Source of the DNA: a virus
Taxonomy: Duplodnaviria; Heunggongvirae; Uroviricota; Caudoviricetes
IMG/VR virus record: IMGVR_UViG_2571042636_000008
Coordinates: 1 to 43,701 of that record
Reading direction: 5' to 3' (one strand)
Length of the DNA: 43,701 bases
Shown here: positions 1 to 36,563 of the stretch, piece by piece
How the letters are laid out: every line of letters starts with the position of its first letter
Numbering within the stretch: the stretch's first letter is position 1
Notes under the pieces: model-generated
What the model saw: only the letters and a program-made list of their open reading frames with translations
The model's database searches: none
Told to the model about the DNA's origin: nothing
Translations under genes and position numbers: made by a program

Positions 1-1260
1 TCATATTCCTATCGCCATGCCATGGGGCATGGATGGGGCAAAGTCCGATAATTTCTGGTTCAACATAGCAATCTGATCGCTGCTGCTGTCGGCCATCCAG
101 GCGCCGTAAACATTGAAAACCATCTGGGCGCTGGAGTGTCCCATCTGGCTGGCAATGAAACTCGGATTGGCCCCGGCAGACAGCGACCAGCAGGCGTAAG
201 TGTGTCTCGACTGATACGCCTTGCGGTGCCTTAAACCTGACCGTTTAAGCGCCGCATCCCATGAGTCACCAACTGAATCGGCTTTGTACAGGTAACCTAC
301 GCTGCCACTTTTTTTAACCAACTGAGGATTGAACACAAATGTACAGTCGTGAATGACCGTTCGGCCATACTCCCGCAGTTGTACCTCAACCTGATACTGC
401 CTGCCTAACCTGGTCATTTCCGCCTGGTTCCTCAAAGCGTCAATGGCTGGCTTGATCAGGTGAACGACCCTGTCGGTACCGGCTTCGGTTTTTGGTAGAG
501 TGAAATCACCGAGTTTCGTATAATTCCGGCGTATGGTCATCGTTCCAGTTTTCAGATCTATGTCTTCCCATGCGAGGGATACCAGCTCACCGTGACGTAA
601 TCCTGTGTATACCGCAATTGACCACAGGTTTTTCGTTTGCTGATGCTTGCAGGCATCAATGAAGCGAACGAATTCATCACGTGTGAGCGGATCTGGTTCT
701 ATCCTGGCCCTCTTTAGCGGCTTGATGCCGTTAAACGGGTTTTCACTCACATAGCCATTATCAACAGCGAACTGAAACATACCCGCGATCGTGGTCATGT
801 AGTAGTTTACCGTCACCACACTCAACCCTTTATCCCCCGCCAGCATATCCTTCCTGATATAGAGAAGCTCTTCTCTTGTCACAGACGAAACCAGCTTATT
901 CGCGCCAACCCTCGGCAGCATGCTTCTCACCACCGATTCATACCTGTTTATGGCATTAGCGCAGATCTCCATCCGTTTAAGCTCAAGCCATTTTTCAGAC
1001 AGATCTTTTACGGTGATATCTTTCTTCCCGATGCCGAAAGTTTTCAGATTTGGCGAGTTGGGGAATTGGGCCGCATAGTCAAAGGTCCCCATGCGGATAG
1101 CGAAACAAACTGACGTTCTCAGCTCCCCGGCCACCTTCCTGTTTTTAGCGGTGTCAGGGACACCGAGGTTTTCCCTGACACGCTTACCTTTAAAAATGAA
1201 CCATATGCGGAGTGACTTTCCGTGGTTCTCAACGCCCGTTGGGTATGATTCTTTACTCAT
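1..1260 (-). CDS. int: Tyrosine-type site-specific integrase
   Basis: 419-aa ORF; C-terminal catalytic region with R...HxxR...Y pattern (LRHRKAYQSRHTYA...VYG) typical of lambda-family integrases; stop codon at window positions 1-3. Confidence 0.9.
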   Translation of the reverse strand: MSKESYPTGVENHGKSLRIWFIFKGKRVRENLGVPDTAKNRKVAGELRTSVCFAIRMGTFDYAAQFPNSPNLKTFGIGKKDITVKDLSEKWLELKRMEICANAINRYESVVRSMLPRVGANKLVSSVTREELLYIRKDMLAGDKGLSVVTVNYYMTTIAGMFQFAVDNGYVSENPFNGIKPLKRARIEPDPLTRDEFVRFIDACKHQQTKNLWSIAVYTGLRHGELVSLAWEDIDLKTGTMTIRRNYTKLGDFTLPKTEAGTDRVVHLIKPAIDALRNQAEMTRLGRQYQVEVQLREYGRTVIHDCTFVFNPQLVKKSGSVGYLYKADSVGDSWDAALKRSGLRHRKAYQSRHTYACWSLSAGANPSFIASQMGHSSAQMVFNVYGAWMADSSSDQIAMLNQKLSDFAPSMPHGMAIGI

Positions 1261-17865: not shown

Positions 17866-18180
17866 ATGCAACGTATGAACCCAACCGATGGTCACAATCT
17901 GCCTTACTGGTGGTCAGCCTTGCTTGGTATCTTTTCCGTCCTGAGTCTGCAGGATTATGTCTTCATCATTGGCGCCCTGATCTCTGCCTTCTTCACAATC
18001 AAGACGTATTACGCAAAGCGCAAGGAAGAGCGAGAGCGACTGGATGAAGAGAAAAAACGCACGCAGCTGTTGGCCAGTTATCTGGCTGATGTCTCCGCAA
18101 AGCCTGGAAGTGACCGCCCGGCTTCAGCCGAAGTGGTAACCGAGGCCTTGAAGCGGATCGCAAGTGATACACAGGGGTGA
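17866..18180 (+). CDS. Holin (pinholin-like, two TM helices)
   Basis: GGAGGTGAGAG RBS; hydrophobic segments [14 protein letters not shown] and [15 protein letters not shown] then charged C-terminus; first gene of lysis cassette, overlaps endolysin start. Confidence 0.65.
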
Positions 18181-18686
18181 GCATGACGCCATCAATGAGG
18201 AATAAACTGATTGGCGTGATCGCCGGCGGCGGTGGCGCCATAGCCATTGCCTCTGCGCTCATCACTGGCCCAACCGGTAACGATGGTCTTGAAGGTGTGC
18301 GATATGTTCCTTATCAGGATGTGGTAGGCGTCTGGACTGTCTGCTATGGCCATACTGGCAAAGACATCATGCTCGGCAAGAAGTACACCGAGGCTGAATG
18401 CCGTGCGCTGCTCAGCAAAGACCTGAACACCGTTGCTCGCCAGATTAATCCTTACATCCAGAAGCCGATCCCCGAGACAATGCGCGGGGCTCTGTACTCG
18501 TTCGCGTATAACGTTGGCGCTGGCAACTTCCAGACCTCCACGCTGCTGCGAAAAATCAACCAGGGCGACCAGAAAGGCGCATGTGACCAGTTGCGCCGCT
18601 GGACCTACGCCAAGGGCAAACAGTGGAAAGGACTGGTAACTCGCCGCGAGATTGAGCGCGAAGTTTGTCTCTGGAGTCAAAAATGA
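18177..18686 (+). CDS. SAR endolysin (T4-type lysozyme fold, GH24-like)
   Basis: Gly/Ala-rich N-terminal signal-anchor-release segment [19 protein letters not shown]; lysozyme-like body from memory of P21 R21. Confidence 0.85.
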
Positions 18687-19072
18687 GCCGGTTAACCGCC
18701 ATTATCAGCGCCATTGCGATCTGCCTGGTTGTTTGCCTTGGTTGGCTGGCAATGCATTACCGCAACGCTGCTGCTGAGCAGAAAACCAGAGCCGATAGCG
18801 CTGAGCAGCAGGTAAACGCAGCACAGGCGATCACCTCCAACGTTCTGACCACCATGACCATCTTCAACACCATCGCCGAGGCCAATCAGCATGCAAAAGA
18901 GCAGATCGCACTGGACGCATCGGGAGCCTCGGCTGATATCCGGGTTGCTGTTGCGAATGATGATTGCACTAATCGCACTGTGCCTGCTGGCGCAGTTAAG
19001 CGGCTGCAGCAATACGCGAACGGTCTACGTCAAAGTGCCGGTGGTCCCGTTACCAGCCAGCCTGACGGCTGA
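18683..19072 (+). CDS. Rz-like inner-membrane spanin (i-spanin)
   Basis: N-terminal TM helix [20 protein letters not shown], coiled-coil periplasmic domain; ATGA overlap with endolysin stop. Confidence 0.7.
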
Positions 19073-19208
19073 CACCCCGCAACCGGAAATCCCCGACAAC
19101 CTGACGTGGGGCCAGAGCCTGGATTTAAACGTCAGTCTGCTATCAGCGCTTGGCCAGTGCAACAGGGATAAGGCCGATATCAGGCAAGCAGAATCAAAAC
19201 GTCAGTAG
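18957..19208 (+). CDS. Rz1-like outer-membrane lipoprotein spanin (o-spanin), +1 frame overlapping the Rz 3' end
   Basis: Lipobox LAQLSGC, Pro-rich mature region [19 protein letters not shown]; starts inside Rz and extends past its stop. Confidence 0.6.
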   Translation: MMIALIALCLLAQLSGCSNTRTVYVKVPVVPLPASLTADTPQPEIPDNLTWGQSLDLNVSLLSALGQCNRDKADIRQAESKRQ

Positions 19209-21630: not shown

Positions 21631-23082
21631 ATGGCGAAGAAAACAGGACGAGTCGCCACGGCGGATTCGTACGATAACTTTGTTGCCCGTGTCGGAATGC
21701 AGCAGCCTAACCAGCATGCCGCATCAACCTACAGGGCGAACTATACCAGCCGCAACCGCCTGCTCATCGAGTGGGCTTATCGTTCCTCCTGGATTATTGG
21801 TGCCGCAGTCGATTCGAAAGCGGACGATATGACCAAAAAGGGCGTGCGGATCACCAGTGAGATTGACCCGAAACGTCGTGGCATTCTGGAATCACGGTTC
21901 GATGAGCTTCAGCTTTGGGATTGCATCAACGAGACGCTGAAATGGTCCCGGCTGTATGGCGGGGCGGTGGCGCTGATTCTGATTGAAGGTCAGGCACCGC
22001 TGACGCCGCTGGTGCTGGATAAGGTTGGCAAGGGCAGCTTTAAAGGTCTGGCTGTACTTGACCGCTGGATGATTAACCCACAGCTCACCAGGCGAATTAA
22101 GGCGCTTGGCCCCAATCTCGGCAAGCCAGAATTCTATGACATCGTGACGACGGCGCAGGGGCTTCCTGCGTGGACCGTTCACCACAGCCGACTGATTCGC
22201 ATGGATGGTGTGAAACTGCCCTACCAGCAGAAAATCACCGAAAACGAGTGGGGCATGTCCATTGTCGAGCGCATCTTCGATCGCCTGACTTCCTACGATA
22301 GCACCAGCGTTGGCGCCGCCCAGCTTGCCTACAAGGCACATCTGCGAACGGCAAAGATTAAAAAGCTGCGTGAAATTATCGCCATGGGCGGTAAACCATT
22401 CGAAGCGCTGGTTAAACAAATGGAGTTAGTTCGCCAGTACCAGACGAACGAGGGTATGTCCCTGTTTGATTCGGAGGACGAATTTGAAACACATTCCTAT
22501 TCTTTCGCGGGCCTGTCTGACCTGCTTAGCGAGTTTAAAGAGGATATCGCGGGTGCTGTTGGCATTCCTCTTGTCCGTCTGTTCCGCCAGTCACCGAAGG
22601 GTTTTTCAACCGGTGACGCTGACCTCGCGAACTACTACGACGACGTTGGAACGCTTCAGGAGCGAGATTTACGGCCTCACATCCGCCTGTTATTCGATGT
22701 ACTGCATCGCTCAGAGTTTGGCGAGCCGTTGCCGCAAGATTTCACCTTTGAGTTTAACCCCCTGTGGCAGATGAGCGACACCGATCGCTCCACGGTGGCA
22801 ACCAACACAACTACCGCTCTTGCAACCGCGGTGCGTGATTTGGGCATGTCGCCGGCTGCTGCTCTGACTGATTTGCGCGAGCTGTCTGACGTTACCGGCA
22901 TCGGTGCTTCAATTAGCGATGAGGATATCCAGAATGCGGCGAAACAGTGGCAGGAGACTGAATCTGAAACCAGCCCTCCGCCGCCGATCGGAGGTCCAGT
23001 ATCAGAAAAGCCTACTGGCGATAGTCGACCAGATAAATCAAATCGTCACGGGTTCCTACGATGGTTCACAGGCAAGCGCTGA
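21631..23082 (+). CDS. Portal protein
   Basis: 483-aa ORF after TerL with CCGGAG RBS; portal position and size; family (DUF1073-like) from memory. Confidence 0.75.
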   Translation: MAKKTGRVATADSYDNFVARVGMQQPNQHAASTYRANYTSRNRLLIEWAYRSSWIIGAAVDSKADDMTKKGVRITSEIDPKRRGILESRFDELQLWDCINETLKWSRLYGGAVALILIEGQAPLTPLVLDKVGKGSFKGLAVLDRWMINPQLTRRIKALGPNLGKPEFYDIVTTAQGLPAWTVHHSRLIRMDGVKLPYQQKITENEWGMSIVERIFDRLTSYDSTSVGAAQLAYKAHLRTAKIKKLREIIAMGGKPFEALVKQMELVRQYQTNEGMSLFDSEDEFETHSYSFAGLSDLLSEFKEDIAGAVGIPLVRLFRQSPKGFSTGDADLANYYDDVGTLQERDLRPHIRLLFDVLHRSEFGEPLPQDFTFEFNPLWQMSDTDRSTVATNTTTALATAVRDLGMSPAAALTDLRELSDVTGIGASISDEDIQNAAKQWQETESETSPPPPIGGPVSEKPTGDSRPDKSNRHGFLRWFTGKR

Positions 23083-23686
23083 GAGCATTGCTAAATCGCT
23101 TGTTGACTACTCCGGGGTGATCGACGACTGGGCCGAAATGGTCGGTCGAAAGATGTTTGCCCAGGTGGAGCGTGAAGAGTGGAATCAGTGGCGCTCTGTT
23201 TCGGAAGAAATATCCGCTGGTCTGCGTGACGTGATTAGTAACACTCCTGTCGGCATGGTGGCACAAGACACCGTTTACCGGCAGATTCGCTATATGAAAT
23301 CTCTGCCATTAGAGGCGGCCGGACGTGTCAGGGAGATTCAGGAGCGTGCGATAAAGGCTGTCATCCATGGTGAGCGTCCAGATCAGCTTTACGAGATGAT
23401 CATGCAATCCGGTGACGTGGCGGCCAGCAGGGCGCGGATGATAGCCCGCACTGAGATAGGCCGCGCCACTACCGCATTAACTCAGGCTCGGGCACTGTCA
23501 GTTGGTTCTGAGGGGTACTGGTGGCGCATCAAGGGGGCTGGTACCAGGCCATCGCACCGAGGAATGAAAGATAAATTTGTGCGCTGGGATAACCCGCCAA
23601 CGCTTGACGGCATGACCGGACACGCCGGATGCCTGCCGAACTGCGATTGCTGGCCAGAAGTGCAGATCCCTGAGTTTAGAAAATAA
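22904..23686 (+). CDS. MuF-like head morphogenesis (minor head) protein; start uncertain
   Basis: Phage_Mu_F-like C-terminus ...YWWRIKGAGTRPSHRGMKDKFVRWDNPPTLDGMTGHAGCLPNCDCWPEVQIP; the track ORF starts at GTG 22904, overlapping the portal by 179 nt; true start could be 22919/22934 or later. Confidence 0.65.
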   Translation: MLQLAMRISRMRRNSGRRLNLKPALRRRSEVQYQKSLLAIVDQINQIVTGSYDGSQASAESIAKSLVDYSGVIDDWAEMVGRKMFAQVEREEWNQWRSVSEEISAGLRDVISNTPVGMVAQDTVYRQIRYMKSLPLEAAGRVREIQERAIKAVIHGERPDQLYEMIMQSGDVAASRARMIARTEIGRATTALTQARALSVGSEGYWWRIKGAGTRPSHRGMKDKFVRWDNPPTLDGMTGHAGCLPNCDCWPEVQIPEFRK

Positions 23687-23724: not shown

Positions 23725-24147
23725 ATGAAGCAAAACATACATAAGCTTAACGGGTTAGAATTCACCCATGAACGCGATTTTATCAACGGGCAATGGGTAT
23801 ATTCTTGGTATTTTAGACCCCTAGAGCAATCTGAATGGTGCCCATTCTCGCTGCCAACGGGGAAAACAAGAAAATCTGATATTGAGAATTTCTTAAAAAA
23901 TTGTGAAGAAGCTACCAAGTTCTATTTAGAGTGGTTAAGAAATGCCTCTGATGTGGAAGGTGCTGAACGCTATTTATTATCCGCAAAACAAGCTTGGGAA
24001 AGGATATCTAGCCCGGACTGGGGAGGGCGTGGAAGTAATCCAAACAAGGATGCCAGGAGGGTGCAACAAGCAAGAGAAACTCTCGAATCGGCAAAAGTAA
24101 AGCTTGAGAAAGCCAAGATATTACGAGAAAGATTAAATAGTAACTAA
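23725..24147 (+). CDS. Moron-encoded hypothetical protein (AT-rich insert between head genes)
   Basis: 140 aa; AGGGATAGCA RBS; visibly lower GC than flanks; own terminator downstream; Trp-rich N-terminus, basic helical C-terminus. Confidence 0.55.
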   Translation: MKQNIHKLNGLEFTHERDFINGQWVYSWYFRPLEQSEWCPFSLPTGKTRKSDIENFLKNCEEATKFYLEWLRNASDVEGAERYLLSAKQAWERISSPDWGGRGSNPNKDARRVQQARETLESAKVKLEKAKILRERLNSN

Positions 24148-33994: not shown

Positions 33995-35056
33995 ATGTCT
34001 CAGAACTGGATGCGGCACTTCGAATTGCAGTTAGTCGATTCGAAGGGGAACGCTACTGATTTTGGTAGCTTCAAGGTCACTTTTACTATCGACTGGTTTA
34101 ACCTCAGCAGCGAAACGCGAGTAGGTACTTTCAAAATCTATAACCTTTCAGCTGATACCGTAAACCGGATCGTCGGTGAGGAATTCTCCCGGATTAGGGT
34201 TATCGCTGGATACGATGGCATTGCAGCTGACGTTCCCGCCAGTCAGGTAGGCGTCGCCAGGACAGTAAACCCCGATGAAGTCGGGCAGATGGACAGTCGA
34301 AATTATGGGCTGATTTTCGACGGGGAAATCCGGTACACCATCACAGGGAAAGATAACCCCGTTGATAGCTTTGTCCTCATTCAGGCGGCTGATTCTGACC
34401 GGGCATTCGCTACCTCGATCACTGCGCAGACGCTGGCGGCTGGCTATACGGTCTCTGACGTCAATGCAGTGCTAATGAAGGACTTCAACGCTAACGGGGC
34501 CACGGAAGGGAATACCCCTACCATGCCTGCAACGGTGTTTCCTCGCGGCAGGGTGCTTTTTGGTATGACCCGGCATCTGATGGATAACGTCGCCGAGCAA
34601 TGCAAGGCTGACTGGATGTTTGTCGACGGCAAGCGGGAAATGGTGGCGAAAAATGAGTTTGTTCACGAAGCCATTAAACTGAACAGCGCCACCGGCCTTG
34701 TAGGTATGCCTCAGCAGACCATTGGTAGTGGCGTTAACGTCCGCTGCCTGATTAACCCTAACATCCGCGTTAATGGCCTGATCGAGCTGAATCAGGCTTC
34801 TGTATTCCGTACCGTGCTGGGAAATAACGATATCGCCATGACGCAAGGGCGTATCACTGACCAGAACAACAACGGAAACATCACCATTGAAGGCACGACT
34901 GCGCAGCCTGCCAGTATTGCGACTGACGGCGTTTATATTGTCCGTGGCATTATGTACACTGGCGACACAAGGGGCCAGGCGTGGTACATGGATATGATGT
35001 GTGAAGCGCGTGGGTCCACGGATCTTTACTCCCAAGGCGCACTTAATCGGGGATAA
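33995..35056 (+). CDS. Baseplate hub/tail protein
   Basis: 353-aa ORF in baseplate block. Confidence 0.55.
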   Translation: MSQNWMRHFELQLVDSKGNATDFGSFKVTFTIDWFNLSSETRVGTFKIYNLSADTVNRIVGEEFSRIRVIAGYDGIAADVPASQVGVARTVNPDEVGQMDSRNYGLIFDGEIRYTITGKDNPVDSFVLIQAADSDRAFATSITAQTLAAGYTVSDVNAVLMKDFNANGATEGNTPTMPATVFPRGRVLFGMTRHLMDNVAEQCKADWMFVDGKREMVAKNEFVHEAIKLNSATGLVGMPQQTIGSGVNVRCLINPNIRVNGLIELNQASVFRTVLGNNDIAMTQGRITDQNNNGNITIEGTTAQPASIATDGVYIVRGIMYTGDTRGQAWYMDMMCEARGSTDLYSQGALNRG

Positions 35057-35059
35057 AAA

Positions 35060-35398
35060 GTGAAAATCTTCACCATCGTTTTTATCGCATTCGCATCCTT
35101 TGGGGCTACCGCCGGTGGCTTCACATCATATTGTGGACCTTACACTTTAGTAGCAAGGGAAGGTGATGTAAGCATTATCAATGGAGAGCGAGTCACCTCT
35201 CAGAAAATAAAATTATTGGGGGAGGACGGCATCAAGATAAACATGGGGATGATGCCTGCCAAAGACGGCAACAACTACGGCTTTCAGTACATCCACCGTC
35301 CTGGTAGTGAATCTCGCTTTCTGAACGTCCAGCTTCTGCAAAACAGCATGGATGCGCCGAAGATTATCGGATCCTTCCCCTGCGTCAAGGTGAAGTGA
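35060..35398 (+). CDS. Moron: small secreted (periplasmic) protein
   Basis: GTG start with GGGGA RBS; signal-peptide-like N-terminus MKIFTIVFIAFASFGATAGG; two Cys; AT-rich relative to flanking baseplate genes. Confidence 0.55.
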   Translation: MKIFTIVFIAFASFGATAGGFTSYCGPYTLVAREGDVSIINGERVTSQKIKLLGEDGIKINMGMMPAKDGNNYGFQYIHRPGSESRFLNVQLLQNSMDAPKIIGSFPCVKVK

Positions 35399-35400
35399 TT

Positions 35401-35847
35401 ATGGAATTTTTCGCAATTATCCTCTTCTTTTTGGCAATAGCCATTGTTACTAGATGGAATAACCATAAGAAAGCTAAAAAGCGGAAAGAAGAAGATAACT
35501 TTATCCATAGTATTGATTATTCTTATCGTCGTCCTGAGGTTAAATCTAAGCCTAAAAATGGTCGTAGAAGAAGCAAGGAGGAAATGCTTGCTGATGGAAT
35601 CGCATATCAAAAATTGATGGGTGATGATTTTAGAAAGTCAGCAAAAGCTACGCAAATCCAGGCGGAAAGAGTCGGATCTAAGAAATATATTTGGCGTGGT
35701 TCTGATTGCTGCCCAAATTGCGATAAGCAGAATGGGAAAACATTCTCTTGGGCAAGACCTCCAAAAACAGGTCACCCAGGAGAAGGAAAATTATGTCCTA
35801 ACGGTTACTGTCGCTGTTGGGCTGAGGTGATAATTCCGAAACCGTAA
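35401..35847 (+). CDS. Moron: membrane-anchored protein with MuF-C-terminal-like Cys/His motif
   Basis: N-terminal TM helix EFFAIILFFLAIAIV; basic linker; C-terminus YIWRGSDCCPNCD...KTFSWARPPKTGHPGEGKLCPNGYCRCWAEVIIP parallels the MuF C-terminus at 22904..23686; strongly AT-rich; terminator follows. Confidence 0.55.
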   Translation: MEFFAIILFFLAIAIVTRWNNHKKAKKRKEEDNFIHSIDYSYRRPEVKSKPKNGRRRSKEEMLADGIAYQKLMGDDFRKSAKATQIQAERVGSKKYIWRGSDCCPNCDKQNGKTFSWARPPKTGHPGEGKLCPNGYCRCWAEVIIPKP

Positions 35848-35868
35848 GGCATTACAAAATTCTATAAA

Positions 35869-35891
35869 AAGCCCACCCATGTGGGTTTTTT
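35869..35891 (+). terminator. Rho-independent terminator after the moron cassette
   Basis: CCCAC-ccat-GTGGG followed by TTTTTT. Confidence 0.55.
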
Positions 35892-35909
35892 ATTGCCTGG
35901 AGTAAGGTA

Positions 35910-36563
35910 ATGGCAATATCCGATAAAACCCGCAGTGGGGCGCTTGCTGAGGTTCTGGCGTCAGAGAGAAGGACGCTCAACGAACAACTTCGCGTTGCAA
36001 TGCCCGGCATCATCCAGTCTTTTGATCCTGACGCAGTGACCGCCGTGGTGCAGCCGGCGATCCGCTACATCGAGCGCGATAACGACGGCAACAAATTAAC
36101 GAATGATTATCCACTGCTGGTAGATGTTCCTGTCGTTTTCCCTCGCGGCGGAGGCTGCACACTGACTTTTCCTGTTAAGGCTGGTGATGAATGCCTTGTT
36201 ATCTTTGCGGACCGCTGTATTGATTTCTGGTGGCAGAGTGGGGGTATTCAGGAGCCGGTAGACGAGCGCATGCATGATTTATCCGATGCCTTCTGCATTG
36301 TCGGCCCGCAGTCGCAGGCGAAGAAAATCGGCGGTATCAGCACCAGTGCGGTAGAGCTGCGCAGTGATGACGGGGAAACAAAGTTGAGCCTTAATCCTGC
36401 CAGTGGAGCTATCAACGGCACGGCGCCGGGAGGTTTTAACCTGAACGGGCTTAAAATTCTCTCGGACGGCCGCCTGCAACTGGTGGATGGCTCAATCGTT
36501 GATAAGCATACGCATGGTGGCGTTGAGCCTGGTGGCAGCAGTACAGCACCACTCGGAGGATGA
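35910..36563 (+). CDS. Baseplate central spike protein (gpV/Gp138-like)
   Basis: 217 aa, Gly-rich C-terminus with HTHGG; GGAGTAAGG RBS. Confidence 0.6.
   Translation: MAISDKTRSGALAEVLASERRTLNEQLRVAMPGIIQSFDPDAVTAVVQPAIRYIERDNDGNKLTNDYPLLVDVPVVFPRGGGCTLTFPVKAGDECLVIFADRCIDFWWQSGGIQEPVDERMHDLSDAFCIVGPQSQAKKIGGISTSAVELRSDDGETKLSLNPASGAINGTAPGGFNLNGLKILSDGRLQLVDGSIVDKHTHGGVEPGGSSTAPLGG

Follow-up and report, generated by a model that had tools for sequence, protein, structure and literature searches.

The window analysed here, a 43,701-nucleotide stretch of virus DNA (IMG/VR record IMGVR_UViG_2571042636_000008, positions 1 to 43,701), carries in its tail module a small gene whose product, here called mini-MuF, combines a predicted N-terminal transmembrane (TM) helix with a C-terminal region of about 95 aa that, judged by profile and pairwise comparison, is a true homologue of the core of MuF head proteins. 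The gene is an optional, moron-type accessory cargo of a Mulock-type temperate myophage integrated in E. coli, as observed from its distribution among related elements, and profile searches place its product in a large and widespread family of stand-alone MuF-core proteins of 80-200 aa.

Gene, cargo slot and distribution

The mini-MuF CDS (Table 1) is annotated as a hypothetical protein in RefSeq/GenBank and in Klebsiella phage Mulock, which is ~88% identical to the window around the mini-MuF region. A GTG at 35395 offers an alternative start, which would give a product of 150 aa. The PGAP label for the identical protein is 'structural protein' in NZ_CM160040.1 (E. coli) and 'hypothetical protein' elsewhere, a difference of name and not of evidence. 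A 78%-identical orthologue (P0007) carries an Enterococcus faecalis label in NCBI, probably because the contig is mis-assigned or a contaminant.

Besides an integrase gene, the window contains a lysis cassette, in which two overlapping Rz-like ORFs are read as i- and o-spanin, a terminase, and a tail module. Following the portal gene directly is the gene of a full-length MuF head protein, the resident MuF; this protein lies outside the mini-MuF element and served as its comparison partner. The longest ORF of the resident muf gene shares 179 nt (22904..23082) with the end of the portal ORF, and its true start is therefore probably further downstream. Between this gene and the protease/scaffold gene lies a 140-aa ORF (23725..24147) with no PHROG match, which may be a further small accessory gene of the head module.

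The mini-MuF gene sits 12 kb from the portal gene, inside the tail module, between the genes of the baseplate hub and of the membrane-puncturing spike. The intervening gene, sec112, ends 2 nt ahead of the mini-MuF ATG, and hub, sec112 and mini-MuF are packed head-to-tail within the late tail operon; a consensus scan of the plus strand from 34800 to 36100 found no sigma-70-like promoter.

Table 1. Features of the window and of related loci. Locations given after an L number refer to that locus.
Feature	Location	Strand	Remarks
Mini-MuF CDS	35401..35847	+	148 aa, ATG 35401 to stop 35847 (ORF list)
Predicted N-terminal transmembrane helix	35407..35454	+	Residues 3-18, FFAIILFFLAIAIVTR; read from sequence
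Basic juxtamembrane stretch	35452..35496	+	RWNNHKKAKKRKEED; read from sequence
MuF core domain	35563..35844	+	Residues 55-148: long helix, then small sheet with Cys/His cluster
Putative Zn-binding cluster	35707..35817	+	C103/C104-x2-C107...H125...C132...C137-x-C139, with PPKTGHPGEG motif
Terminator-like hairpin	35865..35893	.	CCCAC-CCAT-GTGGG, A-run before, T-run after; RNAfold -15.2 kcal/mol
Integrase	1..1260		Within the prophage window
Lysis cassette	17866..19208		Holin, endolysin, two overlapping Rz-like spanin ORFs
Portal gene	21631..23082		phrog_146
Resident full-length MuF head protein	22904..23686	+	PF04233 E=2.2e-12; phrog_324 E=8e-76
Baseplate hub gene (left slot border)	33995..35056	+	phrog_196 E=2.5e-81; E217_GP41 in relatives
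sec112, 112-aa signal-peptide protein	35060..35398	+	ORF; phrog_3443 (function-unknown PHROG)
Membrane-puncturing spike (right slot border)	35910..36563	+	RefSeq annotation; PF18352 in relatives
Alternative cargo in relative	L007 3054-3293		
Alternative cargo in relative	L008 2023-2340	-	
Alternative cargo in relative	L009 3023-3340	-	
Alternative cargo in relative	L005 8495-9153		HigB/HI1420-antitoxin-like pair
Core-plus-extension protein	L015 7923-8675		
Core-plus-extension protein	L016 561-1220		
Core-plus-extension protein	L017 7660-8376		
Core-plus-extension protein	L019 7785-8837		
Core-plus-extension protein	L036 4397-4762		
Satellite-like element	L038 2385-10161		Integrase, small ORFs, Zn_Ribbon_Prim/Toprim/DUF927 primase
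Satellite-like element	L042 4506-14075		Integrase, AlpA, AAA_25 protein

The order hub-sec112-mini-MuF-spike was kept in all 14 of the 14 enterobacterial-type loci recovered, and the divergence of mini-MuF in distant loci (42-57% identity) is similar to that of hub and spike. The gene sec112 follows the hub gene in every related locus, whether mini-MuF is present or absent (30-83% identity), and is the conserved first gene of the slot. Its product may be an exclusion factor or a periplasmic protein associated with the tail. An obligate two-gene unit with mini-MuF was rejected, since sec112 occurs without it in many relatives. Other cargo occupies the same hub-to-spike slot in relatives, namely a DUF4282 gene, a reverse-strand DUF4236 gene or, additionally, a HigBA-like pair. 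A 332-aa protein recovered in the HMM search (P0048) carries DUF4236, a hydrophobic segment and the mini-MuF core fused in one chain, and so links two of the alternative slot cargos.

Carriers of mini-MuF are few. It was found in 3 of 5426 complete E. coli genomes (plus one partial occurrence), of which 296 hold the adjacent hub sequence; Mulock alone carries it among 42 phage records with the hub, and is also the sole carrier among 50,697 phage records. The GC content falls to 0.38-0.42 over positions 35300-35900, against 0.50-0.56 in the flanks, a dip that stems in part from the Lys/Asn-rich composition of the protein. Presence and absence among syntenic relatives, together with this dip, bear out the view of the initial annotation that the gene is moron-type cargo.

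A terminator-like hairpin starts 18 nt past the mini-MuF stop and ends just ahead of the spike ribosome-binding site; the scan assigned it to the minus strand. At the equivalent position, L002, L003, L005, L007 and L021-L032 have a hairpin and T-run as well, with varying stems (CCCAC/GTGGG, CCCGC/GCGGG, CCAGC/GCTGG), and L008 and L009 have the hairpin without the T-run. The same position with different stems argues for a real terminator closing the slot, and its occurrence in L007, which does not carry mini-MuF, as well as in carriers, indicates that it belongs to the slot and not to the mini-MuF gene. With a terminator sitting midway in a tail operon, late transcription would have to proceed by read-through or antitermination.

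Homology to the MuF core and domain anatomy

The resemblance between the C-termini of mini-MuF and of the resident MuF, to which the initial annotation had drawn attention, is real and scores far above shuffled controls. BLASTP aligned the two proteins with 37% identity over 73 aa (E=1e-9), and their Smith-Waterman score of 99 compares with 29.3 ± 4.6 for composition-preserving shuffles of the mini-MuF protein (z=15; 0/2000 shuffles reached 99). When the Cys/His-rich C-termini were aligned alone, z was 14 and the observed score was reached by none of 5000 shuffles. A profile built from 89 short relatives was compared by hhalign with a profile of full-length MuFs, which gave a probability of 99.7% and E=2e-25 over 92 columns and paired residues 55-148 of mini-MuF with residues 155-258 of MuF, the preceding helix included. 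The homologous stretch is therefore about 95 aa, helix plus Cys/His region, and not the ~55 aa that had been proposed.

Family profiles point the same way. The PHROG family phrog_324 ('head morphogenesis') matches mini-MuF at E=2e-9, and PF04233 is the sole Pfam domain family to match it (E=1.2e-3, profile positions 51-109). The score of 20 bits lies under the gathering score of 29.6. TIGR01641, the only match in NCBIfam, is likewise sub-threshold (16.6 vs 39.65). The region is short and rich in Cys and His, as a chance match of a generic zinc ribbon would be; however, the shuffle z-scores of 14-15, the hhalign alignment extending into the preceding helix, and the fact that PF04233 alone was matched, by 77 of the 89 short relatives, with no zinc-ribbon family among their Pfam matches, refute that explanation and leave it virtually no chance. 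The motif is MuF-specific.

Shared by mini-MuF and head MuFs are the helix and the motifs G-x-x-Y-x-W, C/R-x-x-C/H, G-K-x-F-x-W, PP-x-x-GH-x-G and C-x-C. The CxxC pair of mini-MuF (C104, C107) corresponds to R-P-S-H in the resident MuF, and several other full-length MuFs also have R-x-S-H at this position. The description of the module as a copy of the end of the resident MuF did not survive, given the 37% identity, the differing Cys pattern and nearest relatives that are other short proteins; a recent duplication of the resident muf gene was rejected on the same identity and Cys pattern. Residues 1-54 of mini-MuF show no similarity to MuF N-termini, and the N-terminal ~150 aa of full-length MuFs (~250-330 aa) are missing.

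The gene covers the C-terminal third of a MuF only and scores under the Pfam gathering threshold, as might be expected of a decaying, functionless fragment of a duplicated muf gene. Against this, dN/dS measured against Mulock and a second orthologue was 0.04-0.06 in the N-terminal part and in the core alike, and the ORF is intact across orthologues of 42% to 100% identity. Moreover, the protein is only 37% identical to the resident MuF, its Cys pattern is more canonical, and clustering at 50% identity leaves more than 100 clusters in the short family. Selection and conservation together refute a decaying fragment, which we regard as very improbable; a dN/dS of about 0.05 indicates a working protein and not a gene fragment.

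In an alignment of 18 orthologues (42-100% identity; residue numbers there are shifted by +2), C104, C107, H125, C132, C137 and C139 and the PPKTGHPGEG motif are invariant. Among the 89 distant relatives C137 is invariant, and C104 and C139 are kept in at least 90%. From this cluster we infer zinc binding. The protein terminates 9 residues past the CxC motif. AlphaFold models (pLDDT 89 for the whole protein, 83 for the domain alone) show a long N-terminal helix, which spans residues 2-39 in the AF2 model, a coil, a second long helix and a small sheet bearing the Cys/His residues. A Foldseek search of viral models (BFVD) matched head-morphogenesis, MuF and minor-capsid proteins. A PDB sequence search gave no relative of mini-MuF or of the resident MuF, and a PDB structure comparison gave no structural relative of mini-MuF.

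The joining of a MuF module to a membrane anchor, also noted initially, is upheld by a predicted TM helix at residues 3-18, a hydrophobic run with Met-Glu before it and RWNNHKKAKKRK after it. The basic stretch after the helix places, by the positive-inside rule, the C-terminal domain in the cytoplasm, and mini-MuF is predicted to be an N-out/C-in signal anchor with a cytoplasmic Cys-rich domain. A holin, antiholin or spanin was rejected, because the phage has a complete lysis cassette at 17866..19208 and the topology predicted from the charge distribution is opposite to that of an i-spanin; the only holin match in Pfam was noise (E-value 0.1) on the TM helix.

A family of short MuF-core proteins and its neighbourhoods

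Run exhaustively as an HMM against 1.84 billion representative proteins, the orthologue profile returned 2239 hits at E<=1e-3, 146 of them at E<=1e-10. Among the best 149 hits, 137 are at most 200 aa long (median 142), with matches that begin near profile position 45 and reach the end of the profile; full-length MuFs (270-330 aa) first appear near E=1e-11, and the nearest relatives of mini-MuF are other short proteins. The architecture had been called unusual, which is true of cultured phages, where Mulock is the one carrier in 50,697 records, but not of genomes and metagenomes, where the short family is large. The literature search found no description of short or membrane-anchored MuF-core proteins, and the family is apparently undescribed so far.

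An N-terminal TM segment was predicted in 22 of 124 short representatives, and in 21 of these 22 the 15 residues after the segment are more positive than the residues before it. Relatives of the non-TM class often begin with amphipathic peptides of the MGWLSKLF or MSWFDRLKGK type, and the hydrophobic moment of their N-termini exceeds that of their linkers (Wilcoxon p=6e-5). Taking TM helices and amphipathic N-termini together, membrane association looks like a family trait, one that looks clear-cut in the TM class only.

A contig search with the 18-member profile recovered 8 genome loci, several of them of other architectures. Some proteins encoded in MAGs, alphaproteobacterial ones among them, begin with a short R-x-S-H-type MuF core and continue into an unannotated C-terminal extension, which may be toxin-like cargo. 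These proteins total 220-350 aa (the one in L036 only 121 aa) and are without the usual MuF N-terminal region.

The neighbourhoods of distant members were sampled qualitatively, at about a dozen loci, and none of the members examined comes directly after a portal gene. One member (L004) lies inside another baseplate module of the E217/Pam3 type, and one is found in a phage accessory region, adjoining HicAB, a PIN protein and a resolvase. Further members adjoin RelE and a resolvase, are close to an Abi_2 gene and a relaxase, stand between a resolvase and an Imm_superinfect gene while adjoining a hub gene, or stand between Holliday-type endonucleases and HEPN_AbiU2 next to an SMC-like ATPase. 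In a Gallionella prophage the gene shares its strand with a CI-type repressor that lies two genes upstream. Another member adjoins AbiEi/AbiEii and transposases in an integrase-bounded island, and yet another an IS91-type transposase. Two TM-type mini-MuF genes belong to small satellite-like elements (L038 and L042), not to complete phages. The family's neighbourhoods are compartments in which mobile elements keep exclusion, defence and addiction genes, not head modules.

Proposed function and comparison with known systems

These neighbourhoods make a role in conflict plausible. Drawing on genomic context, we hypothesize, tentatively and at less than even confidence, that mini-MuF is a membrane-tethered MuF mimic for superinfection exclusion or interference in phage-versus-phage conflict. 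It would be a single-pass inner-membrane protein whose zinc-stabilised MuF core faces the cytoplasm; there the tethered core would bind what MuF normally binds, whether the leading end of DNA coming in or a competitor's portal. Entry or assembly would then be blocked, and superinfecting phages would be excluded or crippled.

Packed in the late tail operon, with no promoter found, mini-MuF may not be produced before late lytic growth, a timing less favourable to defence, and the conserved position in the enterobacterial lineage, with a divergence that tracks hub and spike, is equally predicted by a virion-linked role. The main rival is a late-expressed helper of the phage's own cycle, in which the MuF core would serve as a capsid- or portal-targeting handle. 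It could act as another small protein, bound to the portal or ejected as a pilot, with a hydrophobic helix that enters the membrane of the following host, or it could anchor the assembly of portal or procapsid at the membrane of the cell that makes the phage. For it speak the place inside the late operon without a detected promoter of its own, with a start 2 nt from the sec112 stop, the gene order kept in 14/14 enterobacterial-type loci with neighbour-like divergence, the baseplate-module location of the distant member L004, and the general view of MuF as a capsid-targeting domain (PMC11699363, PMC6316719); the 'structural protein' name that PGAP gives in one assembly also fits, as a name and not as evidence. 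However, mini-MuF is missing from about 98% of the phages and prophages that share the tail module, which shows it to be dispensable, and many relatives are far from virion genes, in transposon, Abi and toxin-antitoxin islands or satellite-like elements. In addition, a signal-anchor protein would enter the membrane of the producer and not be packaged, and the N-terminal ~150 aa of full-length MuFs are absent. On balance we consider the late helper rather unlikely.

We also weighed re-use of the Zn-binding core for a job unrelated to the MuF partners, for example anti-defence, regulation of a host membrane process, or nucleic-acid binding that benefits the mobile element. The function of the conserved MuF domain itself is stated to be unknown (PMC5576092), the family is carried by very different elements (prophages, satellites and transposon-rich islands), and no structural relative in the PDB constrains the function, all of which would fit. 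Yet mini-MuF retains all the core motifs of head MuFs, which speaks for continued use of the ancestral interaction surface or fold, and no enzyme-like similarity was found; we judge this re-use unlikely.

Whichever function applies, a ~95-aa MuF core can stand alone, under strong selection though detached from the head module, and has been joined repeatedly to a membrane anchor as cargo of prophages, satellites and defence-type islands. Mini-MuF offers a minimal construct for finding the partner of the MuF core and is a concrete candidate for a new kind of exclusion or defence gene built from a virion protein. Taken further, the short membrane-associated MuF-core proteins might form a new and widespread single-gene family for anti-phage defence or superinfection exclusion, with a domesticated head domain acting as a decoy that captures the portal or incoming DNA end of competitors; this extension is possible but doubtful. 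If true, the decoy would have been domesticated by prophages, satellites and other mobile elements, and the family would give a first handle on what the MuF core binds. If mini-MuF proves to be part of the virion instead, the phage would have a second MuF-type ejection protein, one active on membranes, and this too would be new.

MuF proteins occur in about a third of tailed phages and are among the commonest phage head proteins, almost always encoded by a single muf gene (614 genes in 611 genomes; PMC5576092), which normally comes straight after that of the portal (Jamet 2017). In SPP1, gp7 is a strong portal binder of which a few copies go into the procapsid; it is dispensable, and only about 25% of virions without it are infectious (PMC6316719). 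The gp44 of 80alpha, also of the MuF family, is described as a pilot or ejection protein with affinity for blunt DNA ends (PMC12323379). With these proteins (PF04233, TIGR01641) mini-MuF shares the homologous C-terminal ~95-aa core and a matching predicted fold. It differs in having a predicted TM helix and basic linker instead of the N-terminal ~150 aa, in its location in the tail module and not after the portal gene, where the resident MuF does lie, and in being optional in its lineage, as a second MuF-type gene beside a complete one. Three usual features of the MuF family, namely a score above the Pfam threshold, the post-portal position and the full-length architecture, are therefore lacking in mini-MuF.

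The MuF polymorphic toxins (Jamet et al. 2017; Apk2, Bxa) resemble mini-MuF in that MuF is fused to another module, and the MuF domain is viewed as a capsid-targeting handle for their C-terminal toxins (PMC5576092, PMC11699363). The likeness that we draw is that of temperate phages re-using the MuF domain for conflict. The toxins, however, consist of a full MuF extended at its C-terminus by a toxin and are encoded in the head module with an immunity gene downstream, whereas the module added in mini-MuF is an N-terminal membrane anchor. Pfam detected no toxin family in mini-MuF, and no immunity-like ORF comes after it, where the hairpin and then the spike gene follow. A MuF toxin was rejected, as there is no C-terminal extension past the core.

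Small inner-membrane superinfection-exclusion proteins encoded by morons include HK97 gp15, whose gene lies in the tail gene region, T4 Imm (PF14373) and P22 SieA. None of them is known to contain a domain derived from a virion protein. Pfam found no superinfection-exclusion family in mini-MuF, and PADLOC found no family at E<=1. The likeness of mini-MuF to these proteins is one of size, location and context only, and not of sequence. Mini-MuF, too, is a small predicted membrane protein borne as optional cargo among the tail genes of a temperate phage, and one of its relatives adjoins an Imm_superinfect gene.
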